Shown here piece by piece: positions 11,951-64,000 of a stretch of DNA of 64,000 bases. Each line of letters opens with the position of its first letter. The stretch's first letter is position 1. The position numbers and the translations under genes were made by a program. A model generated the notes under the pieces. It worked only from the letters and a program-made list of their open reading frames with translations. It ran no database searches and was not told where the DNA came from. The stretch is from Escherichia coli. Its GTDB lineage: Bacteria > Pseudomonadota > Gammaproteobacteria > Enterobacterales > Enterobacteriaceae. The DNA lies in the NCBI RefSeq assembly GCF_003790525.1, contig NZ_CP033635.1, one strand, 5' to 3'.

Positions 11951-11961
11951 CTAACTAACTC

Positions 11962-13314
11962 TCATAACCGAGAGAAATCATTGAAAAGTGCAAGCCCCAT
12001 TAACAGCACCAGCAGAATCGAGCCAATGCGATAACAAAAGTCTTGAACCCGCTCGGATACCGGTCCGCCCTTGATCTTTTCGATCGCAAGGAACAGCAGA
12101 TGCCCCCCGTCAAGTACGGGCAACGGAAACAGGTTAATTATCCCTAAGTTCACGCTAATAAGCGCAAGAAACGGCAGGTAATAAACAACCCCGAGTTCCG
12201 CTGTCATCCCAGCCCCCTTGGCGATAGAGATCGGCCCACTGAGGTTGTTCAGTTTCACATCACCGGTGATCAATTTTCCCAGCATACTGACCGTCAGCTT
12301 CATCAGCTGCCACGTTTTGTCCGTGGCTTCGACAATGGCGTTGAACGGCCCATACTGGCGTACAACTTTATACTCATCTGGCAAAGGAATGACTTTCGGC
12401 TCAATACCGACAAAACCAATCGCTTTACCATTACCCGGTTTACTCTCCGGGATTAATGTCAAAGACAAAGGACTCCCCTGCCTTTCGATTTCTAACGCTA
12501 AGGATTTACCCGGGTTATCCCGGACAAGCATCACAAAGGTCACCCACTGCGTTAAGGGCTGACCATCGACTTTAACGATCCTGTCGCCTGCTTGCAAACC
12601 TGCCTTGCTTGCCGCCGAGTTTGGCTGCACATTTTCCAGTACAGGTTCAATTTGCGGCCCACGAGGACGAATCCCCAGCGAAGTTACCGGATCTTCTTTA
12701 TCAGGCTCAAACGCCCAGTGACGTAAATCGAGCTTTACATCCCGCCGTTGGTCGCTGCCAAATGGCGCTACCGTAATGGTGGTGCTTTCATCGCCAATTT
12801 TATCGACCAACTGCAAACGCACGGCATCCCAATCAGGCGTTTCGATACCATCTACGGCTTTTAGTTCCGTACCTGGTGCAATTTGTGCTTCCGCAGCTAT
12901 CGAATTGGCTGCTATTTCACCAACCACCGGACGTACGCCAGGCACACCAATAATAAAAACCAGCCAGTAGGCAAAGATAGCAAAAATGAAGTTTGCAACC
13001 GGACCTGCGGCAATAATCGCCGCTCGTTGGCCGACAGATTTATTATTGAAGGCATGGTGGCGGAGTTCCGGAACGACCGGTTCTGCGCGCTCATCCAGCA
13101 TTTTGACATAACCGCCCAACGGGATCAGGGCGATAACATATTCGGTGCCGAGCTTATCAGTTCGCCGCCAGAGCGCCTTACCAAACCCTATTGAGAAACG
13201 CTCAACGCGAACACCACAACGCCGGGCAACCCAGAAATGACCAAATTCATGCACGGTGATAAGTACACCCAGTGCAACGATGAACGAAGCCAAATCCCAG
13301 AGAAAACTCAGCAT
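11962..13314 (-). CDS. rseP: Regulator of sigma-E protease RseP (site-2 protease)
   Basis: ORF track gives 465 aa; known 450-aa RseP begins at internal Met ([28 protein letters not shown]...), HExxH motif present; start trimmed to 13314. Confidence 0.92.
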
Positions 13315-13325
13315 ATTACCTTCCG

Positions 13326-14183
13326 TTAAAGCGTCCTGAATACCAGTAACAACAAGCAAGCAAAGACCGGTACCGCAGCCGTCAGGCTATCAATACGATC
13401 TAAAATACCACCGTGTCCTGGAATTAAATGACCGCTGTCCTTAATTCCTGCTTCACGCTTAAACATACTTTCGGTCAGATCGCCGAGCACTGAGGCTAAC
13501 GCTGCGACAATAGAGCAAATGAGTAAGGTGACGGGAGCGACGTCGAGATTCACCCACATGCCATAACCCCATGAGATTACCGCTGCGGTCGCGAGTCCAC
13601 CGATAAAGCCTTGCCAGGTTTTACCCGGAGAAACCTTCGGTGCCAGTTTATGTTTACCAAACAATTTGCCAAACATATATGCGCCAGAGTCAGCGCCCCA
13701 TACCAGGATCATGACATAGAGCAGCCATATTGCGCCACTGTAATGATTCTCGTCGTAGTGCCAGGCCCGTAACGCCAGCATGCCCCAGAAGAAGGGAACA
13801 ATGGTTAGCACGCCAAAAATAATGCGCAATGTTTTAGAGTTACGCCAGATTGCTGCGGAACCTGGGTAAAACAGCACCAGCAATAGCGCGACAATCCACC
13901 AACCCAGCGAAGCCCAAAGTGAGATTTCAACCAGCGGTTGATGAATATTTCGGTGATATTCCGGCAACAGAAAAAGCATCAGCGCCAACAATAACCCGCA
14001 TAACACCGCCAACCATACTCGCTGCGAACGAGTGGTAAAACCGCTAAGCTGTCCCCATTCCCACGCTGCCAGCATACAGACCACCAGCGTTACAATGGCG
14101 AACCCCACCGGCGGCAACAGAAACAACGCCGCGATGACGACGGGTATTAACACAAAAGCAGATATCAGGCGATACTTCAGCAA
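13326..14183 (-). CDS. cdsA: CDP-diglyceride synthase
   Basis: 285-aa polytopic membrane protein recognised as CdsA. Confidence 0.93.
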
Positions 14184-14195
14184 AAGCGACCCCCA

Positions 14196-14957
14196 TCAGG
14201 CTGTTTCATCACCGGGCTCGGTGCCGCCGAAACGACGCTCTCGATTAGCAAAGGCATTTAACGCCCCTTCAAAGTCTTGTTCATCGAAATCGGGCCAGAG
14301 AACATCTGTAAAGTAAAGTTCGGCATAGGCAATTTGCCAAAGCAAAAAGTTACTAATGCGATGCTCCCCCCCAGTCCTAATTACTAAATCTACAGGGGCC
14401 AGTTCATGCATACAGACATGCTGGTTTAGCATCTCTTCATCTATCTGATCTGGTTGCAGGTTTCCTTGCTGCACCTTTTCAGCCAGTTGCCTGACTCCCT
14501 GGACTATATCCCAACGTCCACCGTAGTTCGCCGCAATATTCAGCGTCAGACCGGTATTCCCGGCTGTTAGCGCTTCAGATTTACGAATACGTTCTTGCAA
14601 ACGCGAGTTAAAGCGACTGGTATCGCCAATAATACGCAGACGCACGTTATGTCGGTGCAGACTCTTTACTTCGCTATCAAGCGCCCACACAAACAGTTCC
14701 ATTAACGCACTGACTTCCTGCGCTGGTCGGTTCCAGTTTTCACTACTAAAGGCATACAGAGTTAACGCCTCAATACCGTTGTTGGCCGCAAAAGAGACAG
14801 CCCGGCGGACGGATTTTGCCCCGGCTTTATGCCCAAAGGCACGAATCTTCCCTTGCTTTTTTGCCCAGCGACCATTGCCGTCCATAATGATCGCAACATG
14901 ACGACAGCCATGCGCTGGCAATTTTTCGCTAAGTGGTTGAGTAGCAGACAACATCAC
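14196..14957 (-). CDS. uppS: Undecaprenyl pyrophosphate synthase
   Basis: 253-aa ORF, ...HVAIIMDGNGRWAKKQG..., cis-prenyltransferase signature. Confidence 0.93.
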   Translation of the reverse strand: MMLSATQPLSEKLPAHGCRHVAIIMDGNGRWAKKQGKIRAFGHKAGAKSVRRAVSFAANNGIEALTLYAFSSENWNRPAQEVSALMELFVWALDSEVKSLHRHNVRLRIIGDTSRFNSRLQERIRKSEALTAGNTGLTLNIAANYGGRWDIVQGVRQLAEKVQQGNLQPDQIDEEMLNQHVCMHELAPVDLVIRTGGEHRISNFLLWQIAYAELYFTDVLWPDFDEQDFEGALNAFANRERRFGGTEPGDETA

Positions 14958-15010
14958 GCGTTTCTTATTCCCTGACAGGGTTTACGGTACTCAGGAATAC
15001 TGAAGCCTAT

Positions 15011-15038
15011 ACAAAAAAAAGCCGTGTAAAACCACGGC
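15011..15038 (-). terminator. Intrinsic terminator between dxr and uppS
   Basis: Plus strand reads AAAAAAAA-GCCGTG-TAAAAC-CACGGC; on the minus strand this is a GC stem followed by U8. Confidence 0.6.
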
Positions 15039-15142
15039 ATACCTGACCTTATAAAGCCAACTACTTACGATCAGATGGCGCAGACTATATCACTGAAGCC
15101 CTACGCTAACAAATAGCGCGACTCTCTGTAGCCGGATTATCC

Positions 15143-46605: not shown

Positions 46606-47855
<1,250 letters not shown>

Positions 47856-48032
47856 TAGAGTAAGTAACTGGTTAATTTACATTCTGGTCGCGTGCGCAAA
47901 TACGCTTTTCCTCACACAGTTGTCAAGTGTTACGTTTAGATAATTGCTATCCGGAAAAGCATCTGCTATTTATAGCGGCCTCATTTTTCCCCCGAACATG
48001 GGGATCGATAGTGCGTGTTAAGGAGAAGCAAC

Positions 48033-48488
48033 ATGCAAGAAGGGCAAAACCGTAAAACATCGTCCCTGAGTATTCTCGCCATCGCTGGGGTGGAGCCATA
48101 TCAGGAGAAGCCGGGCGAAGAGTATATGAATGAAGCCCAGCTGGCGCACTTCCGTCGTATTCTGGAAGCATGGCGTAATCAACTCAGGGATGAAGTCGAT
48201 CGCACCGTTACACATATGCAGGATGAAGCAGCCAACTTCCCGGACCCGGTAGACCGTGCAGCCCAGGAAGAAGAGTTCAGCCTCGAACTGCGTAACCGCG
48301 ATCGCGAGCGTAAGCTGATCAAAAAGATCGAGAAGACGCTGAAAAAAGTGGAAGACGAAGATTTCGGCTACTGCGAATCCTGCGGTGTTGAAATTGGTAT
48401 TCGCCGTCTGGAAGCGCGCCCGACAGCCGATCTGTGCATCGACTGCAAAACGCTGGCTGAAATTCGCGAAAAACAGATGGCTGGCTAA
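48033..48488 (+). CDS. dksA: RNA polymerase-binding transcription factor DksA
   Basis: Known 151-aa DksA begins [20 protein letters not shown] at ATG 48033 with AGGAG Shine-Dalgarno at 48021..48025; C4 zinc finger ([25 protein letters not shown]). Confidence 0.95.
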
Positions 48489-48516
48489 TTACAGCCGTTC
48501 CATCACGTTTACCACA

Positions 48517-48545
48517 GGCGGGAAATGCTCCCGCCTTATTTTTTG
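48517..48545 (+). terminator. Intrinsic terminator downstream of dksA, immediately upstream of gluQ
   Basis: GGCGGGA-AATGC-TCCCGCC followed by TTATTTTTTG, 29 nt after the dksA stop and 10 nt before the gluQ ATG. Confidence 0.65.
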
Positions 48546-48554
48546 TTCAAAGAG

Positions 48555-49451
48555 ATGACAGACACACACTATATTGGCCGCTTCGCCCCCTCTCCTTCCG
48601 GCGAGCTTCATTTTGGTTCTCTGATTGCCGCGCTTGGCAGCTATTTGCAGGCTCGCGCCCGGCAAGGTCGCTGGCTGGTACGCATAGAAGATATCGACCC
48701 GCCTCGTGAAGTTCCCGGTGCCGCAGAGACTATCCTGCGCCAGCTGGAACATTACGGCCTGCACTGGGACGGCGACGTTCTCTGGCAATCGCAACGTCAC
48801 CACGCCTATCGCGAAGCACTCGCCTGGTTATATGAGCAAGGACTAAGTTATTACTGCACCTGCACGCGTGCGCGTATTCAAAGCATTGGCGGTATTTACG
48901 ACGGTCATTGCCGGGATTTGCATCATGGACCAGACAACGCGGCTGTGCGAATTCGGCAGTTGCATCCGGTCACGCAGTTTACTGATCAACTACGCGGAAT
49001 TATTCACGCCGACGAAAAACTGGCGCAAGAAGATTTTATTATTCATCGTCGTGATGGTTTGTTTGCCTATAACCTGGCGGTGGTGGTCGATGATCACTTC
49101 CAGGGCGTCACAGAAATTGTTCGTGGGGCAGATTTGATTGAACCGACAGTGCGACAAATCTCGCTGTACCAGCTTTTTGGCTGGAAAGTGCCAGATTACA
49201 TTCATTTACCGCTGGCGCTTAACACACAAGGCGCTAAACTTTCCAAGCAGAATCATGCGCCTGCGTTGCCGAAAGGCGATCCGCGCCCGGTGTTAATCGC
49301 GGCACTTCATTTTCTGGGTCAGCAGGTAGAAACACACTGGCAGGATTTCAGCGTCGAGCAAATCCTTCAGTCAGCCGTCAAAAACTGGACGCTGACTGCC
49401 GTGCCTGAGTCGGCAATTGTAAATTCAACATTCTCAAATGCGTCATGCTGA
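48555..49451 (+). CDS. gluQ: Glutamyl-Q tRNA(Asp) synthetase (GluRS paralog YadB)
   Basis: ORF track starts at 48525, but that ATG lies in the loop of the dksA terminator hairpin; the recalled 298-aa GluQ-RS begins [30 protein letters not shown] at 48555. Confidence 0.85.
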
Positions 49452-49510
49452 GCTATGATTAGCCGCTATTTTTTTGTCCTGAATGATGTTTGACACTACC
49501 GAGGTGTACT

Positions 49511-50908
49511 ATTTTTACCCGAGTCGCTAATTTTTGCCGCAAGGTGCTAAGCCGCGAGGAAAGCGAGGCTGAACAGGCAGTCGCCCGTCCACAGGTGACG
49601 GTGATCCCGCGTGAGCAGCATGCTATTTCCCGCAAAGATATCAGTGAAAATGCCCTGAAGGTAATGTACAGGCTCAATAAAGCGGGATACGAAGCCTGGC
49701 TGGTTGGCGGCGGCGTGCGCGACCTGTTACTTGGCAAAAAGCCGAAAGATTTTGACGTGACCACCAACGCCACGCCAGAGCAGGTGCGCAAACTGTTCCG
49801 TAACTGCCGCCTGGTGGGTCGCCGTTTCCGTCTGGCTCATGTGATGTTTGGCCCGGAGATTATCGAAGTTGCGACCTTCCGTGGACATCACGAAGGTAAC
49901 GTCAGCGATCGCACGACCTCCCAACGCGGGCAAAACGGTATGTTGCTGCGCGACAACATTTTCGGCTCCATCGAAGAAGACGCCCAGCGCCGCGATTTCA
50001 CTATCAACAGCCTGTATTACAGCGTGGCAGATTTTACCGTCCGTGATTACGTTGGCGGCATGAAGGATCTGAAAGACGGCGTTATCCGTCTGATTGGTAA
50101 CCCGGAAACGCGCTACCGTGAAGATCCGGTACGGATGCTTCGCGCGGTTCGTTTTGCCGCCAAATTGGGCATGCGCATCAGCCCGGAAACTGCCGAGCCG
50201 ATCCCACGCCTGGCAACCTTACTGAACGATATCCCACCGGCACGTCTGTTTGAAGAATCGCTGAAACTGTTGCAAGCGGGCTACGGTTACGAAACTTATA
50301 AGCTGCTGTGTGAATATCATCTGTTCCAGCCGCTGTTTCCGACCATTACCCGCTACTTCACGGAAAATGGCGACAGCCCGATGGAGCGGATCATTGAACA
50401 GGTGCTGAAGAATACCGATACGCGTATCCATAACGATATGCGCGTGAACCCGGCGTTCCTGTTTGCCGCCATGTTCTGGTACCCATTGCTGGAGACGGCA
50501 CAGAAGATCGCCCAGGAAAGCGGCCTGACCTATCACGACGCTTTCGCACTGGCGATGAACGACGTGCTGGACGAAGCCTGCCGTTCACTGGCGATCCCGA
50601 AACGTCTGACTACGCTAACTCGCGATATCTGGCAGTTGCAGTTGCGTATGTCCCGTCGTCAGGGAAAACGCGCATGGAAACTGCTGGAGCATCCTAAGTT
50701 CCGTGCGGCATACGACCTGTTGGCCTTACGAGCCGAAGTTGAGCGTAACGCTGAACTGCAACGTCTGGTGAAATGGTGGGGTGAGTTCCAGGTTTCCGCG
50801 CCGCCAGACCAAAAAGGGATGCTTAACGAACTGGATGAAGAACCGTCACCGCGTCGTCGTACTCGTCGTCCACGCAAACGCGCACCGCGTCGTGAGGGTA
50901 CCGCATGA
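49511..50908 (+). CDS. pcnB: Poly(A) polymerase I
   Basis: ORF track begins at TTG 49490; the established PcnB N-terminus ([19 protein letters not shown]...) starts at an AUU codon, here ATT at 49511, giving 465 aa. Start assignment rests on published knowledge, not sequence alone. Confidence 0.85.
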
Positions 50909-51384
50909 CAGTGGCGTATATTGCCATAGGCAGCAATCTGGCCTCTCCGCTGGAGCAGGTCAATGCTGCTCTGAAAGCATTAGGCGATATTCCAGAAAGC
51001 CGCATTCTTGCTGTTTCTTCGTTTTACCGCACCCCACCGCTGGGGCCGCAAGATCAACCCGATTACTTAAATGCAGCCGTCGCGCTGGAAACCACTCTTG
51101 CCCCTGAAGAGCTACTCAATCACACACAACGTATCGAATTGCAGCAAGGTCGCGTCCGTAAAGCTGAACGCTGGGGACCGCGCACGCTGGATCTCGACAT
51201 CATGCTGTTTGGTAATGAAGTAATAAATACCGAACGTCTGACCGTTCCGCACTACGATATGAAAAATCGTGGCTTTATGCTGTGGCCACTGTTTGAAATT
51301 GCGCCGGAGTTAGTGTTTCCTGATGGGGAGACGTTGCGTCAAATCTTACATACAAGAGCATTTGAAAAATTAAGCAAATGGTAA
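50905..51384 (+). CDS. folK: 2-amino-4-hydroxy-6-hydroxymethyldihydropteridine pyrophosphokinase
   Basis: 159-aa [62 protein letters not shown]..., recognised as FolK; overlaps pcnB stop by 4 nt. Confidence 0.93.
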
Positions 51385-51544
51385 TTTATTTATATTACGA
51401 ATATAAATATTTTCTGAAAATCACACCGACTCTCTTTCCTTAATAACGATTTTAGTTTAAAAATTTTTTATAGAAACATAATATAAATTCCCGCTGAGAA
51501 ATATCAATCCCATCGCCATACCCTAACTAATTGCACTTGTGAAC

Positions 51545-51579
51545 TTAAATTTACTTAATCTTGAATTAAGTAAATTTAA
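51545..51579. repeat. Perfect 15-bp inverted repeat in the AT-rich folK / yadN intergenic region
   Basis: TTAAATTTACTTAAT-CTTGA-ATTAAGTAAATTTAA, about 175 nt upstream of the yadN start. Confidence 0.45.
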
Positions 51580-51754
51580 TTTGTTCAAAAGCTTCTAAAG
51601 TGCACAATAGGCAACCTAATGAACAATGGTTGTAAATTTTGGTAACAAACATCATTGCTCATTAATATCTAACATTTGTTTCTTATATTCGTGTCATGAA
51701 TAGTTACTCTTCAAACATGTAGTCTGACTAATGGAATTTTATTCAAGGATTTTT

Positions 51755-52339
51755 ATGTCTAAAAAATTAGGTTTTGCCCTGTCTGGTCTTATGCTGGCAA
51801 TGGTTGCAGGTAATGCTTCTGCTGCACTGGACGGTGGCCAATTAAATATCAGTGGTCTGGTAGTTGATAACACCTGTGAAACCCGTGTTGATGGTGGCAA
51901 CAAAGATGGCCTGGTGCTTCTGCAAACTGCAACTGTTGCTGAAATCAGTGCTGGCGTACTGAATGACACCGTAGGTGCTAAAGCTAAACCTTTCAGCATC
52001 ACCGTTGACTGCAGCAATGCAAACCCGAATCCTGGTAGCACCGCAAAAATGACCTTCGGTTCCGTGTTCTTTGGCAACAGCAAAGGGACTCTGAACAACG
52101 ATATGTCTATTAACACGCCTTCTGACGGCGTAAATATTGCCCTGCACAATATTGATGGTTCCACTATCAAACAGGTTCAAATTAACAACCCAGGCGATAT
52201 TTACACAAAAACGCTGGACGCTACGACTAAATCTGCAACCTATGATTTTAAAGCATCCTATGTCCGTGCTGAAGCAAGCCAGGCACCAACTGCTGGTTAT
52301 GTTAAAACCAACACTGCATATACCATTACTTACCAGTAA
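51755..52339 (+). CDS. yadN: Fimbrial major subunit (Yad fimbriae)
   Basis: Second ATG of the ORF ([23 protein letters not shown] signal peptide) preceded by AAGGA; fimbrin-like with conserved Cys and C-terminal Y-x-I-T-Y-Q. Confidence 0.8.
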
Positions 52340-52436
52340 TCCTTCGTTAGATTCATAAACTGAATATCTATGGGAGTAACTTTCTTAATAGTGGAATGTT
52401 ACTCCCTATTTTAATTAACTCTGTCGGGAATGGTTT

Positions 52437-53177
52437 ATGTTTTTAAACGCTAAACATACTGCAGCTGTATGCTTCGCCACTTGTATGAGCTTAAGCGCAT
52501 CGGCAATAGCAGATATCGTAATTTCAGGAACTCGCGTAATTTATAAAAGTAATGAAAAAAGCGTTAATGTTCGGCTGGAAAATAAGGGGAATAATCCGTT
52601 ACTCGTTCAGAGCTGGCTGGATACTGGCGACGATAGTGCTGAACCAGGGAGTATTACTGTCCCATTTACCGCCACCCCTCCTGTTTCGCGAATTGATGCC
52701 AAACGTGGTCAAACTATTAAATTGATGTACACGGCTTCCTCACCGCTGCCAAAAGACCGAGAAAGTGTTTTCTGGTTTAACGTACTCGAGGTTCCACCCA
52801 AACCTGACGCAGATAAAGTCGCCAACCAGAGTCTTCTGCAATTGGCATTCCGTACGCGTATCAAATTATTTTATCGCCCGGAAGGTTTAAACGGACTGCC
52901 ATCAGATGCACCCGCAGCACTGAAATGGTCATGGGCAACCTCTGCTGGAAAAACTGCATTGCGCGTCGCAAATCCGACACCGTATCACGTCTCATTCAGT
53001 AGTGGTGATTTAGTCGCCAATGGCAAAACCTACCCCCTGGATGTAAAAATGGTAGCCCCGCTGAGTGAAGAAACCTTCGATATAAAAGGCATGAGTGGTA
53101 AAGCAAGTTCTGCCAAAGTGCATTTCTTCGCCATAAATGACTTTGGTGGTGCAATTGAAGGCAATGCCAGCCTGTAA
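52437..53177 (+). CDS. yadV: Periplasmic fimbrial chaperone (PapD-like)
   Basis: 246-aa ORF with signal peptide and PapD-like chaperone N-terminal region (...GTRVIYKSNEKSVNVRLENKGNNPLLVQSW...); synonym ecpD. Confidence 0.85.
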   Translation: MFLNAKHTAAVCFATCMSLSASAIADIVISGTRVIYKSNEKSVNVRLENKGNNPLLVQSWLDTGDDSAEPGSITVPFTATPPVSRIDAKRGQTIKLMYTASSPLPKDRESVFWFNVLEVPPKPDADKVANQSLLQLAFRTRIKLFYRPEGLNGLPSDAPAALKWSWATSAGKTALRVANPTPYHVSFSSGDLVANGKTYPLDVKMVAPLSEETFDIKGMSGKASSAKVHFFAINDFGGAIEGNASL

Positions 53178-53211
53178 CTAAATCAGGAATAAACGCAGCA
53201 GGAAGCACAAC

Positions 53212-55812
53212 GTGTCCCGAAAAATCATAAAAACGCATAATAACAAACTTACATATATAGCCTCGTTTTGCGCATTGCTATTAAGCCCCTGTGCCATAAG
53301 CGCTGAACACGTTGAATATGATAATACCTTTTTGATGGGGCAAGATGCTTTTAACATCGACCTTAGTCGGTATACCGAAGGTAACCCTACCTTGCCCGGC
53401 GTGTATGACGTCAGTGTTTATATCAATGATCAACCGGTTATCAACCAAAGCATTTCCTTTATTACCCTCGAAGGTAAGAAGAATGCGCAGGCTTGTATCA
53501 CCCTGAAGAATTTATTGCAGTTTCACATTAATAAACCAGATATAAATGCCGAGAATTCCATCCTTCTACAGCGCGAAGGCGAACTCGGAGATTGTCTTGA
53601 TTTAGCAAATATCATTCCTCAGGCCTCGGTTCATTATGACGTCAACGATCAACGACTGGACATCAATGTTCCTCAAGCCTGGGTAATGAAGAATTACCAA
53701 AACTATGTTGACTCTTCACTGTGGGAAAACGGTATTAACGCCGCAATGCTAGCCTACAACGTCAACGCATATCACAGCGAAATTCCGGACAGAAAAAACG
53801 ACAGTGTTTACGCCGCATTTAACGGCGGTATAAATCTGGGGGCATGGCGACTTCGCGCAACCGGCAACTACAACTGGATGACCAATGTAGGCAGTGATTA
53901 CGATTTTCAGAATCGCTATTTGCAGCGCGACCTGGCCTCTTTGCGTTCACAGTTAATAGTGGGTGAGTCATACACAACTGGGGAAACCTTTGATGCTGTC
54001 AGTATTCGCGGTATTCGTTTATACAGCGACAGCCGAATGCTACCGCCTGCGTTAGCTAGTTTTGCGCCTATTATTCATGGTGTCGCTAACACCAACGCAA
54101 AAGTCACCATTACCCAGGGCGGGTATAAAATATATGAAACTACTGTACCGCCGGGAGCATTTGTTATTGATGATTTAAGCCCATCAGGCTACGGCAGCGA
54201 TCTCATTATCACAATCGAAGAATCTGATGGCATAAAACGAACTTTTTCCCAGCCATTTTCTTCGGTAATTCAGATGCAACGCCCTGGTGTTGGAAGATGG
54301 GACATCAGTGCTGGTCAGGTATTAAAAGACGATATTCAAAATGAGCCAAATTTGTTCCAGGCCAGCTACTACTATGGTCTGAACAACTATCTTACAGGTT
54401 ATACCGGTATTCAAATTACCGATAATAACTATACTGCCGGGCTGTTGGGCCTTGGCCTGAATACCGCGTACGGTGCGTTTTCAGTCGATGTAACCCACTC
54501 GGATGTGCAAATTCCGGACGATAAAACCTACCGCGGGCAAAGTTATCGCATCTCCTGGAATAAGTTATTTGAAGATACCAGAACCTCGCTCAATATCGCC
54601 GCTTACCGTTATTCAACCCAGAATTATCTGGGGCTTAACGATGCACTGACATTGATCGATGAAGTAAAACATCCGGAACAGGACCTGGAACCTAAAAATA
54701 TGCGTAACTATTCACGCATGAAAAATCAGGTTACGGTTAGTATTAACCAACCCCTCAAGTTTGAAAAGAAAGACTATGGCTCATTCTATCTTGCCGGAAG
54801 TTGGTCTGACTATTGGGCGGACGGACAAAATAATACTAACTACTCCATTGGTTATAGTAACAGCGCATCGTGGGGAAGCTACAGCATTAGTGCCCAACGG
54901 TCCTGGAGCCAGGACGGCGGTAATGAAGACAGCATCTATCTAAGCTTTAGCATTCCTATCGAAAAGTTACTGGGTTCAGAACATCGCGACTCTGGTTTTC
55001 AGAGCATTGATACTCAGTTAAATAGTGATTTCAACGGCAGCAATCAACTCAGTATCAGCAGTAGTGGTTATAGCACCGAAAACCATATCAGTTATAGCGT
55101 CAATACAGGCTATTCGATGATGAAATCCAGTGATGATTTGGGCTATATCGGCGGATATGCAAGCTATGAATCTCCCTGGGGAACTCTTTCCAGTTCAGTT
55201 TCCGCAAGCAGTGATAATAGCCGTCAAATCTCATTTAATACCGACGGCGGATTTGTTTTACATAGCGGCGGCCTGACCTTCAGTAATGACAGCTTTAGCG
55301 ACTCAGACACTCTGGCCGTTGTACAAGCGCCAGGAGCTAAAGGGGCGCGTATTAACTATGGTAATAGTACGATAGATCGTTGGGGATATGGTGTTACTAA
55401 CGCGCTCTCCCCTTATCATGAAAACCGAATTGCACTCGATATTAACGGTCTGGAAAATGACGTTGAATTGAAAAGTACCAGTGCTATTACTGTCCCCCGC
55501 CAAGGGTCTGTTGTCTTTGCTGGTTTTGAAACAGTTCAGGGACAATCAGCGATTATGAACATCAAGCGAACTGACGGTAAAAACATTCCGTTTGCCGCAG
55601 ATATTTATGACGAGAACGGAAATATTATTGGCAATGTAGGGCAAGGTGGTCAGGCCTTTGTTCGAGGTATAGAACAACAAGGTAACATACGTATCAACTG
55701 GCTTGACGACGGTAAACCTGTCACTTGCCTTGCTCATTACCAGCAGAGCACAGCACCAGAAAAAATAGCGCAAACTATTATTCTGAATGGAATTAGTTGT
55801 CAGATTCAGTAA
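53212..55812 (+). CDS. htrE: Fimbrial outer membrane usher
   Basis: 866-aa ORF from GTG with AGGAAG Shine-Dalgarno; usher family, sits between chaperone and minor subunit genes. Confidence 0.9.
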   Translation: MSRKIIKTHNNKLTYIASFCALLLSPCAISAEHVEYDNTFLMGQDAFNIDLSRYTEGNPTLPGVYDVSVYINDQPVINQSISFITLEGKKNAQACITLKNLLQFHINKPDINAENSILLQREGELGDCLDLANIIPQASVHYDVNDQRLDINVPQAWVMKNYQNYVDSSLWENGINAAMLAYNVNAYHSEIPDRKNDSVYAAFNGGINLGAWRLRATGNYNWMTNVGSDYDFQNRYLQRDLASLRSQLIVGESYTTGETFDAVSIRGIRLYSDSRMLPPALASFAPIIHGVANTNAKVTITQGGYKIYETTVPPGAFVIDDLSPSGYGSDLIITIEESDGIKRTFSQPFSSVIQMQRPGVGRWDISAGQVLKDDIQNEPNLFQASYYYGLNNYLTGYTGIQITDNNYTAGLLGLGLNTAYGAFSVDVTHSDVQIPDDKTYRGQSYRISWNKLFEDTRTSLNIAAYRYSTQNYLGLNDALTLIDEVKHPEQDLEPKNMRNYSRMKNQVTVSINQPLKFEKKDYGSFYLAGSWSDYWADGQNNTNYSIGYSNSASWGSYSISAQRSWSQDGGNEDSIYLSFSIPIEKLLGSEHRDSGFQSIDTQLNSDFNGSNQLSISSSGYSTENHISYSVNTGYSMMKSSDDLGYIGGYASYESPWGTLSSSVSASSDNSRQISFNTDGGFVLHSGGLTFSNDSFSDSDTLAVVQAPGAKGARINYGNSTIDRWGYGVTNALSPYHENRIALDINGLENDVELKSTSAITVPRQGSVVFAGFETVQGQSAIMNIKRTDGKNIPFAADIYDENGNIIGNVGQGGQAFVRGIEQQGNIRINWLDDGKPVTCLAHYQQSTAPEKIAQTIILNGISCQIQ

Positions 55813-55831
55813 CAACAGGGAATTTCACATA

Positions 55832-56398
55832 ATGAGAATAACACTGCATAAATTGGCAATACTGACTGGATTATTTTTATCATCCTCTGTACTTGCAACA
55901 GACATTAATGTTGATTTTACAGCAACCGTAAAAGCATCAACTTGTAACATTACGTTATCAGGCGACAATGTCACCCCTGATGGGAGTGACACCTACACAT
56001 TAACTTTCCCAGGAACTATTGGTCTGGACAAAATTGCAAATAAAACGACTCAAGCACAGGCGAATTTTAATCTGGTTGCCAGCGGTTGTACCACAGGCGT
56101 CAGCAAAATCAATACCAGGCTCAGTGGGAATGCTTCCGGAACTACTCCCGCATTAATTGTTCCACTCTCTTCTGACACTACATCAACAACTAATTATATT
56201 GGTATGGGTATAAAAGCACTTGGTGAAGATGATTCGACATTCTTAATCCCAAACAGTGCGCCGAGTTTTATTCCATGGGAAATTAGTGATACAGACAAAA
56301 CTCTTGAACTGACCGTTGCACTGCGCGAAACCACGGCTGGCAGTGGTGTTCCTGGCGATTTCCGCGCCCAGGCAACTTTCAATTTCATTTATGAATAA
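55832..56398 (+). CDS. yadM: Fimbrial minor subunit
   Basis: Internal ATG at 55832 (MRITLHKLAILTGLFLSSSVLA signal peptide) preceded by AGGGA; the upstream part of the tracked ORF overlaps the htrE 3-prime end. Confidence 0.75.
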   Translation: MRITLHKLAILTGLFLSSSVLATDINVDFTATVKASTCNITLSGDNVTPDGSDTYTLTFPGTIGLDKIANKTTQAQANFNLVASGCTTGVSKINTRLSGNASGTTPALIVPLSSDTTSTTNYIGMGIKALGEDDSTFLIPNSAPSFIPWEISDTDKTLELTVALRETTAGSGVPGDFRAQATFNFIYE

Positions 56399-56412
56399 CA
56401 GGGATGATAATA

Positions 56413-57018
56413 ATGAAATCTAAAACATTATGTTATGGACTGCCCGCTGGTGTTTTTTTTGCGGCATCCCTATTCACCAGCCAATTGTTTGCAGCTACCG
56501 ATAGCGTTAAGCTGAATGTTAAAGCAACCGTAGAGACGGGAACCTGTACCGCCAGCCTGGTGGATGACAATGATCAGCCTATTTCTGTTATTGCATTTGG
56601 GGATGCTTACATTCCTGAAATTGATGCCAAAACAAAAATTAAAATATTTAAGTTACAGTTTAAGGATTGTGCTGGTATTCCTAATAAAAAAGCACTCGTA
56701 AAATTAACTAAACGCGCAACTTGTGAAGGAGCAGCCAACGATGGGCCTGGTTTTGCAAACGGCTCCGCCGCTGCTGATAAAGCAAATGCTGTTGCGGTTG
56801 AAGTATGGAATACCACGACACCTGGTACAGACGGCAAGACTCAATTTAGCTGCGTAACACCAGTCGCTCAGGAAGTGAATATCTCCACTGCAACAGGAAC
56901 TACGTCAGTATATCATCCTATGAGTGCACGCCTGGTGGTAGAGAAAAATAAAAGCAAAACCGACATCACTGCCGGTCCGTTTTCCGCACCTGCAACATTT
57001 TCTATCACCTATAACTAA
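56413..57018 (+). CDS. yadL: Fimbrial minor subunit
   Basis: Fimbrin-like ORF with signal peptide (MKSKTLCYGLPAGVFFAASLFTSQLFA); start chosen at the second ATG, so the start is uncertain by 9 nt. Confidence 0.75.
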   Translation: MKSKTLCYGLPAGVFFAASLFTSQLFAATDSVKLNVKATVETGTCTASLVDDNDQPISVIAFGDAYIPEIDAKTKIKIFKLQFKDCAGIPNKKALVKLTKRATCEGAANDGPGFANGSAAADKANAVAVEVWNTTTPGTDGKTQFSCVTPVAQEVNISTATGTTSVYHPMSARLVVEKNKSKTDITAGPFSAPATFSITYN

Positions 57019-57044
57019 CAGGCCATTAAAGTCAGGGACCGATT

Positions 57045-57641
57045 ATGCTTTCCTCTCAACTAAAAATTAAGATAAAAACAAGTCTGTTCCTGGCATTATT
57101 GTTTGCCACATCCAGTCCTGTATATGCAGGGCTGGATGTGGATATGGTTGCCAATATCAAGAACAGTACATGTAAAAGTGGCCTCAGTAACCTTGGTAAT
57201 ATCGACCTTGGTGTGGTTGGTGTGGATTATTTTTCTGGTAACGTCGCACCTGAAGATGATTATCCGGGTGGGAGAGAGTTCACTATCACTGTGACTGACT
57301 GCGCCATCCAGGGTTCTGGAAATGTGTTAAATCAGTTACATATTAACTTTAAACCGCTTAATGGCGTGATGGCGACAGGCTCTCAGCAAATTTTTGCAAA
57401 TGAAAATGTCGCCGGCGCTCAAAACGTAGGTGTAGTAATATTTTCCACTCAGGACCCGGCTAATATATTTAATGTTCTTACCCCAGCGGGCAGTTCTCGT
57501 TCAATTTATCCGGTGATGACTGCTGATTTAAACAATTCATCCTGGAAATTCTATACACGGATGCAAAAAATCAACCCTGTATTAAATGTCATGCCCGGCC
57601 AAATCATAAGCCATGTATTAATTGATATTTACTACGAGTAA
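57045..57641 (+). CDS. yadK: Fimbrial minor subunit
   Basis: 198-aa fimbrin-like ORF with signal peptide, ending ...IDIYYE. Confidence 0.75.
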
Positions 57642-57694
57642 CATACCAAAAACAAATTACTGCGACTATTACAGCAGTGGATGGTGGAGTGAAA

Positions 57695-58966
57695 ATGAAG
57701 ACATTCTTCAGATATTTTCTTTTTTTAATTCTGTGCTTGAGTTGTTATACCGCGAGTGCTGGCACTGATGATTTCGTAGGATATGTTGTTGGGAATAACT
57801 ACGGCGTTGGTCCGTCAGATCAAAAATGGAGAGAAACCGGGCCAAATGGAGATGTGACAGTCGTGTTCAGGTATGGTACCAGTACAAATAATTTAGTATT
57901 TTATAAACCAACACAACTGGGTCCAACAGGGGTGAAATTACATTGGAGTCAGTTAGATACTGCTTCTGGCGGAGGCTTTCTTTATTGTAACAGAAGCAAT
58001 AACACCAGTGGCGGGGCAATGCGTATCGAAAATGCAATGGTTGACTCTGGAAAAAGATATGGTAACCATAAACTATTCAATACATCTGTTCCCGGTTTGT
58101 ATTATACAATATTAATTTCAAATATGTGGTCAGCTTACGGTACTGTAACTAACGTTAGTTCACCAGGAATATATATTGGTGATTCTGCAGAACAATATTT
58201 TTCATGGTACAATCCAAGCGAAAGCATATTATACCAAAGTTGTAACAATGCCAACACATCCAGCAAATATTGGGCTGTAGGCGGTATTTATCAAAATCTT
58301 ACCATCGAATTTTATACAGATACCAACTTTGATCCAACAGTAACTCAACAAGTTTCATTATCGCGCTCATCAAACTATTTATATTCATTTAAAGCTTATG
58401 GTGCTGGTATCGGCATTAACGAACACAGCTATTTTCTTCGAGTTGATTTTGACCTACTAAATATTAAATTAAGTAATCCCACTTGTTTTACAGCTATGTT
58501 AAGTGGAACATCTGTTACTGGTTCTACGGTAAAAATGGGCGAGTATAGTGAAGCACAAATAAGAAACGGTGCCACACCGGTTCCTTTTGATATTTCACTT
58601 CAAAACTGCGTTCGTGTGACTAATATCGAGACAAAATTAGTTTCAACAAAGGTTGGTACTGAAAACAGGCAACTCCTTGGTAACACTCTCACAGGAAATG
58701 GCGCAGCAAAAGGCGTTGGGGTATTGATTGAAGGATTAGCAAACAGTAAAAGTGCCCTCATGATACTGAAACCTAATGATTCAACTTCTGTTTATAAAGA
58801 TAATACGGGCCAGACGCAGAATAACGATTCAGATGCGATTTACCCGGAAGATGACGGTATAACGTATCCACTTCATTTCCAGGCTACATTAAAACAAGAC
58901 GGGAATATTGCTATTGAACCCGGCGAATTTAAAGCCACCAGCACTTTTCAGGTTACCTACCCCTGA
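57695..58966 (+). CDS. yadC: Fimbrial tip adhesin-like protein
   Basis: ATG at 57695 ([22 protein letters not shown] signal peptide) inside a GTG-initiated ORF; about 423 aa, two-domain adhesin-like protein with pilin-like C-terminus (...FQVTYP). Confidence 0.75.
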
Positions 58967-58972
58967 TAACAC

Positions 58973-59003
58973 TATCGCACCGCCAGACAACGGCGGTGCG
59001 ATA
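58973..59003. repeat. Perfect 12-bp GC-rich inverted repeat downstream of yadC
   Basis: TATCGCACCGCC-AGACAAC-GGCGGTGCGATA 7 nt after the yadC stop; no U tract on either strand. Confidence 0.4.
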
Positions 59004-59077
59004 CGGATAAATCATTGCCCCCACCAATGTGACTGATAAAATGCGAGACAGCACAACATTATTTATCAGGATACGCT

Positions 59078-59872
59078 ATGAAACCAACCACGATTGCTTC
59101 ATTGCAGAAATGCAAGCAGGACAAAAAACGTTTCGCAACCATCACCGCTTACGACTATAGCTTCGCAAAACTGTTTGCCGAAGAAGGACTTAACGTCATG
59201 CTGGTAGGCGATTCACTGGGCATGACGGTTCAGGGGCATGACTCCACGCTACCGGTTACCGTTGCCGATATCGCCTATCACACCGCCGCTGTGCGTCGCG
59301 GCGCGCCAAACTGCCTTCTGCTGGCTGACCTGCCATTTATGGCGTATGCCACGCCGGAACAAGCCTTTGAAAACGCCGCAACGGTAATGCGTGCCGGAGC
59401 CAACATGGTCAAAATTGAAGGCGGTGAGTGGCTGGTGGAAACCGTACAAATGCTGACCGAACGTGCCGTTCCAGTTTGTGGTCATTTAGGCCTAACCCCA
59501 CAGTCAGTAAATATTTTCGGTGGCTACAAAGTCCAGGGGCGCGGCGATGAAGCGGGAGATCAACTGCTCAGCGATGCATTGGCATTAGAAGCTGCTGGGG
59601 CACAGCTGCTGGTACTGGAGTGCGTGCCGGTTGAGCTGGCAAAACGCATTACCGAAGCACTGGCGATCCCGGTTATCGGTATTGGCGCAGGCAACGTCAC
59701 TGACGGGCAAATCCTCGTGATGCACGACGCGTTCGGCATTACCGGCGGTCATATTCCTAAATTCGCCAAAAATTTCCTCGCCGAAACGGGCGACATCCGC
59801 GCGGCTGTGCGGCAGTATATGGCTGAAGTGGAGTCCGGCGTTTACCCGGGCGAAGAACACAGTTTCCATTAA
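59078..59872 (+). CDS. panB: 3-methyl-2-oxobutanoate hydroxymethyltransferase
   Basis: 264-aa [36 protein letters not shown]..., recognised as PanB. Confidence 0.95.
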
Positions 59873-59883
59873 GGAGTGACGTT

Positions 59884-60735
59884 GTGTTAATTATCGAAAC
59901 CCTGCCGCTGCTGCGTCAGCAAATCCGCCGCCTGCGTATGGAAGGTAAGCGCGTGGCGCTGGTGCCCACCATGGGTAACCTGCACGACGGCCATATGAAG
60001 CTGGTTGACGAAGCCAAAGCCCGCGCCGATGTGGTCGTCGTCAGTATTTTCGTTAACCCGATGCAGTTTGACCGCCCGGAAGATCTGGCTCGCTACCCAC
60101 GCACCTTGCAGGAAGACTGCGAGAAGCTAAACAAACGTAAAGTGGATCTGGTTTTCGCTCCCTCGGTAAAAGAGATCTATCCGAACGGTACAGAAACCCA
60201 CACCTATGTCGATGTTCCAGGCCTTTCCACCATGCTGGAAGGTGCCAGCCGTCCAGGACATTTTCGCGGCGTTTCGACTATTGTCAGCAAGCTTTTCAAC
60301 CTGGTCCAGCCAGATATCGCTTGCTTCGGTGAAAAAGATTTTCAGCAACTGGCGCTGATCCGCAAAATGGTTGCTGATATGGGCTTTGATATTGAGATTG
60401 TCGGCGTACCGATTATGCGCGCCAAAGACGGTCTGGCGCTGAGTTCCCGTAACGGTTATCTGACGGCGGAACAACGCAAAATTGCGCCGGGTCTGTACAA
60501 GGTCTTAAGTTCAATTGCCGACAAATTGCAGGCTGGCGAACGGGATCTCGATGAAATTATTGCTATTGCCGGGCAAGAACTGAATGAAAAAGGTTTCCGT
60601 TCCGATGATATTCAGATTCGCGATGCCGACACCTTGCTGGAAATCTCTGAAAACAGCAAACGAGCGGTGATCCTGGTAGCCGCCTGGCTTGGCGATGCTC
60701 GCCTGATCGACAACAAAATCGTAGAACTGGCGTAA
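59884..60735 (+). CDS. panC: Pantothenate synthetase
   Basis: 283-aa ORF from [40 protein letters not shown]..., recognised as PanC. Confidence 0.95.
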
Positions 60736-60816
60736 TATTTAACTGGCGCTACGGCTGATGGCGCCAGTTATTCATTGCCACGTCATCTGTAAGCAATTAT
60801 TCATATCGTAGACAAC

Positions 60817-61032
60817 TTAGTTAGAGTTAATTAGCTTATCAATCTCTGCAAGAGATAAAGCTGTCACCTCTGCAACGTCTTCCCGAGACATTCCTTTACT
60901 CAGAAGACGCTGGGCCAGTCTTACCTTCTGGAGTCCCTCTTTATATCCCTTCTGAAATCCCTTCTGAAATCCCTTCTCTTCAAACCACTGCGCCAACGTC
61001 TGCCAGGTTTCTCTCCGTGTCTTTATTTCCAT
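60817..61032 (-). CDS. Small ORF (71 aa) paralogous to the C-terminal tail of YadD/RpnC; candidate free-standing RpnS-like protein
   Basis: ATG at 61032 preceded by AAGGGA; MEIKTRRETWQTLAQWFEEKG-(GFQK repeats)-LLSKGMSREDVAEVTALSLAEIDKLINSN parallels the yadD C-terminus ...TLAQWFEEKG-(RQEV repeats)-FLSKGMSREDVAEMANLPLAEVDKLIS; DNA of the two 3-prime ends is clearly homologous. Expression is unproven. Confidence 0.45.
   Translation of the reverse strand: MEIKTRRETWQTLAQWFEEKGFQKGFQKGYKEGLQKVRLAQRLLSKGMSREDVAEVTALSLAEIDKLINSN
60946..60978. repeat. Short tandem 12-nt repeat inside the 71-codon ORF
   Basis: CCCTTCTGAAAT repeated in tandem, encoding GFQKGFQKG on the minus strand. Confidence 0.5.
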
Positions 61033-61100
61033 ATGTTCCCTTAATTATCTGGTCAGTTAACAATAACAATTATCTGGCTATAACTGATAATGCAGATAAC

Positions 61101-62021
61101 TTAGCTAATCAGCTTATCAACCTCAGCAAGAGGTAAATTTGCCATCTCTGCAACGTCTTCCCGAGACATCCCTTTACTCAGAAAACGCAGGGCGAATTCC
61201 TGTCTTACTTCCTGTCTAACCTCTTGTATTACCTCCTGTCTTACCTCCTGCCTTTCCTCCTGTCTTCCCTTCTCTTCAAACCACTGCGCCAGCGTCATCA
61301 TAGACTCCCCTCCCGTTTCCCTGTCTCTCAGCACACCATAAAACAAATCCGCTTGTTCAGTATGACCGCGTTGCAGCATATAGTTTTGCATGGCAACTAA
61401 CTGACTTCCGCTAGTGTACCCTTCGTCTATCAGCGTGACCAGTTGCTCCAGCAATAACATTAAGTCGCGTTGGCGAATATGTTTTTGCAGCAGTTCGAGA
61501 ATCGCAATCCGCCGATGTTGCATGATTTCGTCATCCGGTGTGATAGTGATATCCACCAGCGGGAAAGGACTGTTATAGACGCGTCGCGCCAGCTCCGGCG
61601 AGTAAAACATATCAAACCAGCACATTGAGAGTGGATAAGGCGTGGCCTCGCCCTGATAAAACAAAATCGGCACCACCAGCGGCAGCTTATCGTGATCTGC
61701 CTCCAGATGCCGGTGCATGGCAGCAATAGAATAACGCATCATGCGAAAGGCCATTTTTTTGTCCGGCTTGCTTTGGTGTTCAATTACAACATGTAGATAG
61801 CCCGTATTACCCTGCATTTGCACGGAATAGAGCACGTCAGTGCTGTGCCCTTTCAGGCTTTCTTCAATAAAACTCCCCGACTCAAGATGCAGCGTGTCGA
61901 GGTCACACAGTTCGCGTAGTTCCGCTGGCAAATGGATATCCAGAAAGTCACGAGCCGTTTCCGCATGCATTAAAAATTGTTTAAACACCGCATCATGCGG
62001 TGTGGTACTCGGTGCATCCAT
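61101..62021 (-). CDS. yadD: Rpn-family (YhgA-like, PD-(D/E)xK) recombination-promoting nuclease
   Basis: 306-aa ORF, MDAPSTTPHDAVFKQFLMHAETARDFLDIHLPAELRELCDLDTLHLESGSFIEE..., recognised as YadD (RpnC); AGGGA Shine-Dalgarno before ATG at 62021; located between panC and panD. Confidence 0.85.
   Translation of the reverse strand: MDAPSTTPHDAVFKQFLMHAETARDFLDIHLPAELRELCDLDTLHLESGSFIEESLKGHSTDVLYSVQMQGNTGYLHVVIEHQSKPDKKMAFRMMRYSIAAMHRHLEADHDKLPLVVPILFYQGEATPYPLSMCWFDMFYSPELARRVYNSPFPLVDITITPDDEIMQHRRIAILELLQKHIRQRDLMLLLEQLVTLIDEGYTSGSQLVAMQNYMLQRGHTEQADLFYGVLRDRETGGESMMTLAQWFEEKGRQEERQEVRQEVIQEVRQEVRQEFALRFLSKGMSREDVAEMANLPLAEVDKLIS
61196..61272. repeat. Imperfect 12-nt tandem repeats inside the yadD 3-prime region
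   Basis: About six imperfect copies of CCTCCTGTCTTA-like units, encoding RQEERQEVRQEVIQEVRQEVRQE on the minus strand. Confidence 0.6.
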
Positions 62022-62294
62022 CTTCCCTGCCTTCTGTGTTGTCTTGCGTGAAGGCAGTATCCAGTCAAGGCGCGCCGTCGTCAGCCGCCTCTTTAGTGTT
62101 TACCGAGCAGCGTTCAGATAAATTTCAATTGGTTACAGGCATTACATGGCACGCTTCGGCACGGTTCGCAAACTGCTGATGCAAATGCCGTCAGATGAGT
62201 AGACACTAAACAAAAATCGGGCAATACTGCGTGAGAATTTCCTCAAAGCAGGCATCGCCTGCTTCGTTAACGACAGGGTAGAAAGGTAGAAGTT

Positions 62295-62675
62295 ATGATT
62301 CGCACGATGCTGCAGGGCAAACTCCACCGCGTGAAAGTGACTCATGCGGACCTGCACTATGAAGGTTCTTGCGCCATTGACCAGGATTTTCTTGACGCAG
62401 CTGGTATTCTCGAAAACGAAGCCATTGATATCTGGAATGTGACCAACGGCAAGCGTTTCTCCACCTATGCCATCGCGGCAGAACGCGGTTCGAGAATTAT
62501 TTCCGTTAACGGTGCGGCGGCCCACTGCGCCAGCGTCGGCGATATTGTCATCATCGCCAGCTTCGTTACCATGCCAGATGAAGAAGCTCGCACCTGGCGA
62601 CCCAACGTCGCCTATTTTGAAGGCGACAACGAAATGAAACGTACCGCGAAAGCGATTCCGGTACAGGTTGCCTGA
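62295..62675 (+). CDS. panD: Aspartate 1-decarboxylase
   Basis: 126-aa [41 protein letters not shown]..., recognised as PanD (pyruvoyl-dependent; G-S cleavage site present). Confidence 0.95.
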
Positions 62676-62678
62676 TTG

Positions 62679-63908
62679 TTATCCCTGCGGCTGGTTACTC
62701 ACCAGCCGCGACATCGTCTCCAGCGAATCCGTTCTTAAGATATAAAGTCGTTTTAGTAACAACGGATTATCCCCCGGTTTTACTTTGCCTTTCATGGTCG
62801 TCACCGCCAGGTGAAATCCGGCTTCTTTTGCTGCCTTCACGGCTTTGTCATTAAATCCGCCAAATGGATAAGAAAGATACAAAACATGTGGATTAAATTG
62901 CGCCAGAGCGCGGCGTGAACGTGCAAAATCAAACAGAATATTGTGCTCACTACGGCTCAGCAATATAGGCCGCCGATAACCATCTATCCGATGCAAAAAA
63001 TGAGTATGTGACTGGAAATCAAATACATCGCGAATTTCGTTAAGTTCAGAAACGCTCATAAATTGCAGCGATTTTGGGTTCCATTTCTGCGGGTGACGTT
63101 TGATGCGCGAGGTAACAATAAACGCCGTCGCCTTCATACCATATTGTTTCAACACAGGATACGCATAGCGGCTCACCGACTTGAGGCCATCATCAAAGGT
63201 AATTACCACCGCTCGCGCAGGGAGATTGATCTTATTCTTCACGTAACCTTCCAACTGCGCCATGCTCAGTGTCGCGTATCCCCTGTCGCGCAGCCAGGCC
63301 ATCTGGTTATTGAAAGCGCGTACCGAGGTGGTCGTCGAAGTATGGCGAAAACGGGTGTTTTCTTCGTCGCGCAAAATATGGTGATAGGTTAGCACCGGCA
63401 GGCCATTATCGGGTTGGGCATCCAGCGCGCTGATATAGGCCAGTCGATCGCCAATACGGATCTGATACCAGGTTTGATTTAACCTGTCTTTCAGTTTATG
63501 CAAAATCGGGTAGCGCAAATTGTCCGCCAGTACTCCAAATGGCGCACTGCCCACACTCGGTGCGTTATAAACCAGTGTATCTTTCCAGGTTATTAAGTTC
63601 TGATTACTCAGCGGCTTGTTGAGGTCACCCAAACCATCTTCAACTTTTTGTCGCCCCTGAACCGGCTCGAGATGGCCTTTATCGATAAACCCTTTACCAA
63701 AGCCAAAATTAAATGCGTAATAACTTGCGGCAGTGGGCTCCACGGCAATGATTTGCCCGGCCCGAATATTCCCTACCGTCACCATTTTGTCGCCAATTTG
63801 CGCCCAGACCGCGGCATTTTCGATGGTTTGCATATAACGGGCAGGTAATGCGGCACTGACGCTTGCGGTAAACAGCATCAGCAGGAGAATAACAGCTTGT
63901 TTGTACAT
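62679..63908 (-). CDS. yadE: Putative polysaccharide deacetylase lipoprotein
   Basis: 409-aa ORF with signal peptide ([19 protein letters not shown]), recognised as YadE. Confidence 0.85.
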
Positions 63909-64000
63909 GAAAAAATAACCGAGGGTGAAACAACGCTTTTATTGTAGCAAAAGCGTCATCAGGATCGCGGGTTAATACTCATACAAATTATGTTTGAGGA

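Follow-up and report, generated by a model that had tools for sequence, protein, structure and literature searches.

A deeply diverged, mosaic version of the Yad chaperone-usher fimbrial operon at the folK-panB site of Escherichia coli SMS-3-5

The 64,000-nucleotide stretch of Escherichia coli DNA analyzed here (contig NZ_CP033635.1 of assembly GCF_003790525.1; below, the window) carries between folK and panB, at positions 51385-58966, what is almost certainly the chromosomal Yad chaperone-usher fimbrial operon (Sta in Salmonella) at its usual site, in the version of strain SMS-3-5. Judged by sequence comparison, the operon is an intact and selectively maintained allele, and all of it downstream of the 5' part of yadN is deeply diverged. 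By the same kind of comparison, the SMS-3-5 haplotype is a recombinant mosaic of promoter, assembly and minor-subunit genes, and adhesin, and it belongs to a rare operon lineage. The window as a whole matches E. coli SMS-3-5 (NC_010498.1) at 100% identity, a window position p corresponding to position 219042 - p on the minus strand of that sequence.

The folK-panB interval contains seven intact open reading frames (ORFs) on the plus strand, in the order yadN-yadV-htrE-yadM-yadL-yadK-yadC, tightly spaced with gaps of 14-97 bp. It begins at the first base past the stop codon of folK (50905-51384) and ends at the last base of the yadC stop codon, upstream of panB (59078-59872). A preliminary description of this DNA had placed both ends exactly and had recognized a complete seven-gene yad operon, and the intact ORFs together with family matches for subunits, chaperone and usher bear this out. 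The RefSeq annotation of SMS-3-5 lists the same seven genes, with ORF calls that agree apart from the usher start, and gene order is identical in K-12 MG1655 (b0141-b0135). The site is fixed, being occupied by the operon also in K-12, in five other E. coli strains and in Salmonella. The order of major subunit, chaperone, usher, three minor subunits and adhesin is that of a seven-gene yad operon, although not every yad operon found at this site has seven genes.

Family searches assign a role to each product. The major pilin gene yadN (51755-52339; 194 amino acids) encodes a Pfam Fimbrial domain (PF00419, E = 7e-12), and yadV, also called ecpD (52437-53177; 246 amino acids), a PapD-like periplasmic chaperone that reaches 445 bits on NCBIfam model NF007398 (cut-off 285). 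The outer-membrane usher gene htrE starts at 53212 or 53224 and ends at 55812 (866 or 862 amino acids, depending on the start); its product matches NF007337 end to end with 1639 bits (cut-off 830), the runner-up family scoring 505 bits. Three minor pilins follow. YadM (55829-56398; 189 amino acids) is a Fimbrial domain protein (PF00419, E = 7e-19), YadL (56413-57018; 201 amino acids) scores 371.7 bits on the variant model NF011797 (cut-off 206) versus 306.8 bits on the K-12-type model NF011795, which is under the cut-off of 392, and YadK (57045-57641; 198 amino acids) scores 297 bits on NF011794 (cut-off 132). The last gene, yadC (57695-58966; 423 amino acids), encodes the tip adhesin, with 889 bits on NF007267 (cut-off 391) and a Fimbrial match (PF00419) in its C-terminal part. 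NCBIfam holds separate models for YadC and YadL variants, and it is on variant models, not on those of K-12 length, that YadC and YadL of SMS-3-5 score best. For YadN, YadM and YadL the nearest NCBIfam families are StaA, StaD and StaE; YadN and YadM are assigned by Pfam domain, position and identity to the K-12 proteins (92% and 64%).

Taken together, a PapD-like chaperone, an usher, Fimbrial-domain pilins and a two-domain tip adhesin make this a classical chaperone-usher system. The usher groups with HtrE by family score and identity. Read by eye, the YadV translation contains the motifs GTRVIY and RIKLFYRP; motifs of this type hold the arginine and the lysine that anchor subunits in PapD. 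All five pilin-type translations show the penultimate tyrosine and a pair of cysteines, with the C-termini TITYQ, NFIYE, SITYN, DIYYE and QVTYP; their signal peptides were judged by eye only.

The length of YadC depends on the start codon. An ATG at 57695, preceded by GGTGGAG and common to 36 homologues, yields 423 amino acids, while RefSeq starts at a GTG at 57677 (429 amino acids); the K-12 protein has 412. Counted from the conserved ATG, the lengths given in the preliminary description (about 423 here, 412 in K-12) are right. Its view of YadC as a two-domain adhesin also fits the predicted structure and a fold search, with a lectin domain modeled at about residues 23-255 and a pilin domain at about 256-423. 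The PDB contains no sequence relative of YadC. In the protein database its relatives range from 86% down to about 40% identity and are nearly all from Escherichia; those from species other than E. coli are 54-65% identical to SMS-3-5 YadC.

Divergence from K-12 is deep across the operon. In a sliding alignment, DNA identity to K-12 is 57-81% over approximately 52200-59000, as opposed to 89-100% in the flanks; the divergence begins within yadN near 52200, and the drop is sharp both there and at the end of yadC. At the protein level, identity to K-12 is 92% for YadN, 82% for YadV, 84-85% for HtrE, 64% for YadM, 70% for YadL, 68% for YadK and 65% for YadC, compared with 96-100% for the products of pcnB, folK, panB and panC. 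An allele of K-12 type would be nearly identical to K-12, as neighboring core genes are at 98-100%; at 64-92%, the SMS-3-5 operon is not such an allele. The preliminary description singled out YadC as the component most likely to differ between strains. YadC is, however, neither the sole variable component nor clearly the most variable one, since YadM is equally diverged. While that description had the YadC lengths right, it overlooked that the operon belongs to a distinct lineage with a mosaic history.

Coding function seems to have been retained despite the divergence. Six of the seven products have the same length as in K-12, YadC being the exception. Across the operon body the synonymous divergence from K-12 (dS) is above 1.2 or saturated, and the ratio of nonsynonymous to synonymous divergence (dN/dS) is 0.05-0.15, so that the SMS-3-5 and the K-12 versions both look functional. 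Around the operon, dS falls with distance (yadN 0.51, panB 0.36, panC 0.30, folK 0.19, pcnB 0.15). As the Nei-Gojobori estimates were saturated for htrE and for several comparisons with Salmonella, raw differences at four-fold sites were used there instead. Between SMS-3-5 and K-12 this difference is 0.63 for yadV-yadC; between E. coli and Salmonella it is 0.51 in pcnB, panB and panC and 0.66-0.70 for the yad genes.

Comparison with six other E. coli versions (seven comparison loci were aligned) shows that different parts of the haplotype have different nearest relatives. The upstream spacer and the 5' part of yadN match K-12 and B1 at 89-93% identity, but the B2 versions at just 61-78%. The 3' part of yadN and the genes as far as yadK, by contrast, resemble a single one of the aligned loci, that of CUWW06 (81-99% DNA identity in 300-bp bins, 82-98% amino acid identity), which places a recombination boundary in yadN near 52200. 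In YadC, the lectin domain is 88-90% identical to the B1 and CUWW06 types (88% for B1) but only 57-58% to K-12 and ST131, whereas the pilin domain is nearest to the ST131 type (87%). The haplotype is rare: at 99% identity or more it occurs in about 160 of 5426 complete genomes (~3%). In the same genomes, the yadM-yadK segment finds about 44 others at 80-95% and about 3900 at 60-80%. The yadK-yadC segment is found at 80-90% in 1349 of them, and the ones listed are all B1-type alleles of about 80% identity.

Overall, there are at least four lineages of the operon body, one of them with six genes. This six-gene operon, at the folK-panB site of E. coli CFSAN061768 (positions 9538-16063 of locus L006), has two minor-subunit genes, the second of which matches YadK (53%) and not YadL; its usher is 74% identical to that of SMS-3-5 (75% to the K-12 usher) and its adhesin 50%. 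Some loci have been inactivated independently of one another. In PSJ-12 an IS1 deletion has removed all of the operon but a piece of its last gene, IS2 lies within the usher gene of CUWW06, and htrE carries a frameshift in GB089. A scan with the usher protein, covering one genome per species, found only three loci and no named donor outside E. coli: one E. coli locus (84% usher identity) and two partial ushers on fragments of metagenome-assembled genomes (88% and 96%). For other Escherichia the scan is uninformative, and protein matches and one Salmonella contig were used instead. The 96% match, an usher fragment at positions 2-592 of USPF01000083.1 from a metagenome-assembled genome labeled "uncultured Blautia sp.", is most likely a wrongly binned E. 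coli contig.

The operon is ancient, because a homologous seven-gene operon occupies the same locus, between pcnB/folK and panB, on a Salmonella enterica contig (30-59% amino acid identity); a Salmonella counterpart at this locus has been reported before (Wurpel et al., 2013; PMC3559732), in work that counts Yad and Sta among the core-associated fimbriae. Nor does the locus look like a recently acquired island. Besides the occupied site in Salmonella, there are no tRNA genes in 47000-64000, no integrase or insertion sequence is annotated at the operon borders, and the upstream spacer contains no direct repeats.

Base composition sets the operon apart from the 46 other genes in the RefSeq gene list of the window. 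GC content is 0.427 for the operon, 0.420 for the full interval and 0.523 for the rest of the window. Individual yad genes range from 0.388 to 0.459, versus a mean of 0.525 (standard deviation 0.027) for the others (Mann-Whitney p = 5e-8), and at third codon positions (GC3) all seven (0.301-0.437) lie below the minimum of the others (0.458; p = 1e-8). Codon adaptation, indexed on core genes of the window itself and thus on a small reference set, is also lower (0.598 versus 0.701; p = 2e-4). Within the operon, yadN has the top value, in keeping with the role of its product as the bulk subunit. Of the 14 spacers that exceed 120 bp, the one between folK and yadN (51385-51754; 370 bp) has the lowest GC content, 0.268 (others 0.357-0.495). 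The preliminary description, which had noted by eye that the yad genes and especially this upstream region are more AT-rich than the flanks, is confirmed on both counts. The same holds elsewhere: in all eight versions examined, operon GC (0.42-0.45 for the seven versions from E. coli, 0.47 for Salmonella) is approximately 0.10 under that of the flanking genes, and the upstream spacer, at 0.21-0.32, is the most extreme part of a locus far under the GC of the host genome. Since all eight versions keep it at so old a locus, low GC looks like a maintained property and not the fading relic of a foreign origin. Of the earlier proposal that the operon was anciently acquired, the age therefore stands; low GC is a weak argument for acquisition.

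The spacer is presumed to hold the yad promoter and an H-NS site, and parts of its sequence are conserved between versions. On the plus strand, the block GAATATAAATA..TTC.GAAAA (51398-51420; spacer positions 15-36) is invariant in the seven E. coli spacer versions. A repeat search found a palindrome with 18-nt arms, AACTTAAATTTACTTAAT / ATTAAGTAAATTTAATTT, at 51542-51582, nested in a second, 12-nt inverted repeat at 51532-51604. Most positions of its central half-sites CTTAA and TTAAG are invariant in seven versions that otherwise differ by ~40%, which makes the palindrome a candidate binding site for a regulator. We found no description of the nested repeats in the Yad literature consulted for the operon. 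Two other candidates were dropped. A CRP site at the TGTGA near 51538 lacks, by eye, the second half-site. The other was a fimS-like invertible switch, suggested by an inverted repeat (20 nt, 80%, with an exact core of 10 bp) on either side of a 276-bp part of the spacer. The right arm of this repeat is conserved neither in K-12 nor in B1, there is no recombinase gene next to the operon, and a rough estimate puts the number of 10-bp cores arising by chance at ~0.4. Yad has been reported not to be phase-variable (PMC13245861).

Two hairpins, both on the plus strand, punctuate the transcript. Between yadN and yadV, GGGAGUAAC...GUUACUCCC (52372-52415) folds with -26.1 kcal/mol (z = -2.3) and is followed by a U-rich tract. 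Its stem is kept in eight versions, including Salmonella, with several pairs changed on both sides; judged by analogy to fimbrial operons elsewhere, it probably acts as a partial terminator that keeps the major-subunit mRNA in excess. The second, a 12-bp GC-rich hairpin 3' of yadC (58973-59003; z = -5.6), shows compensatory changes among E. coli versions and precedes a conserved promoter-like site for panB (59015-59042). It probably marks the 3' end or stabilizes the mRNA, and would set the operon apart from the panB promoter. A permissive Rfam search of 50800-62400 returned nothing.

Together, these data are compatible with a model for the SMS-3-5 operon whose assembly steps are drawn from established knowledge of the chaperone-usher pathway. 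The subunits would be exported to the periplasm, where YadV would hold each of them by donor-strand complementation. HtrE would then polymerize them in order, YadC first, then YadK, YadL and YadM, and finally the YadN rod, with the U-tract hairpin after yadN probably ensuring the surplus of YadN mRNA. H-NS bound to the AT-rich spacer and coding DNA would keep the operon silent in standard culture until particular cues induce it. H-NS represses yad in K-12, CFT073 and EC958, yad is induced by serum and in infected tissue, and Yad surface fibers have been demonstrated for the same three strains (PMC13245861). Because the spacer is ~90% identical to that of K-12, control by H-NS as in K-12 is likely in SMS-3-5.

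Some observations weigh against the assignment and the model built on it. YadN and YadM remain below the NCBIfam cut-offs of their nearest models, StaA and StaD. A promoter scan found 23 sites versus 21 expected from shuffles and named no promoter. The high-affinity H-NS motif TCGATAAATT, with at most one mismatch, has 7 matches in the window versus 4.9 expected, and zero in the yad region, an uninformative outcome. The hairpin after yadC has no T tract on either strand and would be a non-canonical terminator. Finally, fiber assembly, H-NS silencing, the roles of the hairpins and ligand specificity in SMS-3-5 are points that we infer.

How such an allele came to be at this site can be explained in several ways. 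One explanation, which extends the reading of the interval as a diverged Yad allele and which we consider possible though short of probable, is a long-lived balanced polymorphism: diversifying or frequency-dependent selection (by hosts, phages or immunity) would have preserved, within Escherichia, several Yad lineages that predate the species, the promoter, assembly and adhesin modules would be shuffled between them, and low GC would be selected for control by H-NS. The four-fold-site difference between SMS-3-5 and K-12 in yadV-yadC is larger than the one that separates the housekeeping genes of E. coli and Salmonella and nears the one between their yad genes, divergence decays away from the operon, at least four operon-body lineages exist (the six-gene one included), and AT-richness is kept in all versions. 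In a quick neighbor-joining tree, moreover, YadC alleles of E. fergusonii and unnamed Escherichia species interleave with those of E. coli; this is a distance tree with no support values, and the interleaving could equally result from transfer between species. The synonymous estimates, for their part, are saturated and hence unreliable, and weak codon bias and little transcription could have raised the synonymous rate. The Salmonella proteins are also more distant (30-59% from the E. coli lineages) than the seven-gene E. coli versions are from one another (62-85% for yadV-yadC), so that the E. coli lineages may be younger than the separation of the two genera. More specifically, we raise as a tentative suggestion that four or more old Yad lineages have been kept by selection at the folK-panB site, reshuffled as three modules and shared across Escherichia species. 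If true, Yad would be a hypervariable locus of antigen-like character, much as the O-antigen and flagellin loci are, with its low GC held by selection for H-NS control and not left over from a foreign origin.

The sharp drops in identity inside yadN and at the end of yadC, flanking genes somewhat more divergent than pcnB, and a haplotype found in only ~3% of complete genomes would also fit a fairly recent, one-off replacement in the SMS-3-5 lineage, by homologous recombination via the conserved flanks with a divergent Escherichia-like donor. We consider this unlikely, as the species-representative scan revealed no closer donor (non-coli YadC proteins reach only 54-65%), the borders show no integrase, insertion sequence or tRNA, and the three modules have different nearest relatives, all of them E. 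coli, which would demand several events. Much less probable still is that the operon is a decaying cryptic remnant devoid of function, its low GC the result of relaxed selection and AT-biased mutation. Yad is indeed silent in laboratory culture (PMC13245861), codon adaptation is low, and the locus is often damaged elsewhere, by IS1, IS2 or frameshift as described above. Decay is nonetheless difficult to reconcile with seven intact genes, a dN/dS of 0.05-0.15 over near-saturated synonymous divergence, product lengths preserved to the residue in six of seven cases, and hairpins kept via compensatory changes. Published yad mutants, furthermore, affect colonization (PMC13245861, PMC6921372).

The surroundings of the operon have some features of their own. 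About 2 kb upstream, in the gluQ region (48800-49400), identity to K-12 dips to 89-92% in a small divergent patch, compared with 97-100% in its neighbors. On the other side, ~2 kb from yad and between panC and panD, lies rpnC (61101-62021, minus strand), a recombination-promoting nuclease gene whose product has 306 amino acids (300 in K-12) and a QEVRQEV-type repeat near its C-terminus; a link between rpnC and recombination at yad would be pure speculation. Between panC and rpnC, an ORF of 71 amino acids (60817-61032, minus strand) lies within about 60750-61100, in a ~280-bp stretch with no K-12 counterpart. Its annotation here is "hypothetical protein", while other strains list it as "RpnC/YadD family protein" or "partial transposase". 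Over 60750-61500 the GC skew is -0.29, a strongly negative value.

The operon, its locus, H-NS silencing, variability and the link to Salmonella Sta have all been published, and as a discovery the SMS-3-5 copy therefore matters little. The only mildly novel aspect is how deep and how modular the allele lineages are; they might make a modest example of how selection acts on surface structures. In practical terms, K-12 is a poor stand-in for the Yad of other strains. What has been worked out with K-12, CFT073 or EC958 on receptor specificity (xylose-containing glycans, annexin A2), antibodies or thresholds for typing by PCR or BLAST may not transfer; an 80% usher cut-off, for example, would miss the six-gene variant (74% to the SMS-3-5 usher, 75% to that of K-12), which would be scored Yad-negative.

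Among known systems, Yad of K-12 MG1655 has the same site, the same seven genes in order, a spacer that is 89-93% identical and a nearly equal operon GC (0.424 versus 0.427 in SMS-3-5), but differs in the proteins, with 64-85% amino acid identity for YadV-YadC and 57% for the YadC lectin domain. Type 1 fimbriae (fimAICDFGH, with the FimH adhesin) are also among the closest known systems. Salmonella Sta (staA-G) resembles the SMS-3-5 operon in site, gene order and product sizes; it is unlike it in protein identity (30-59%, with 55% for the usher) and in its higher GC (0.468; GC3 0.43-0.54), and its locus has no rpnC and no gene between panC and panD. Within E. coli, a high prevalence of Yad has been reported for phylogroups A, B1, B2, C and F (PMC13245861, 2026), and its prevalence and gene-wise variation have been documented (PMC3559732, 2013; PMC13245861). 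Reported conservation is 80-100% for major subunit, chaperone and usher, 60-100% for the minor subunits and 45-100% for the adhesin, whose lectin domain is generally less conserved than its pilin domain; phylogroup B2 has two subtypes, and recombination between phylogroups has been described (PMC13245861). The published pattern of conserved and variable subunits, established with EC958 (ST131) and CFT073 (PMC13245861), fits the SMS-3-5 copy, which nevertheless represents neither B2 subtype: its YadV-YadC proteins are 62-85% identical to those of an ST131 strain and of the Nissle-type EcN_Sk, with HtrE at 84-85% to EcN and ST131, as it is to K-12. The SMS-3-5 copy thus joins the documented alleles of a known operon, ordinary and already described in kind.

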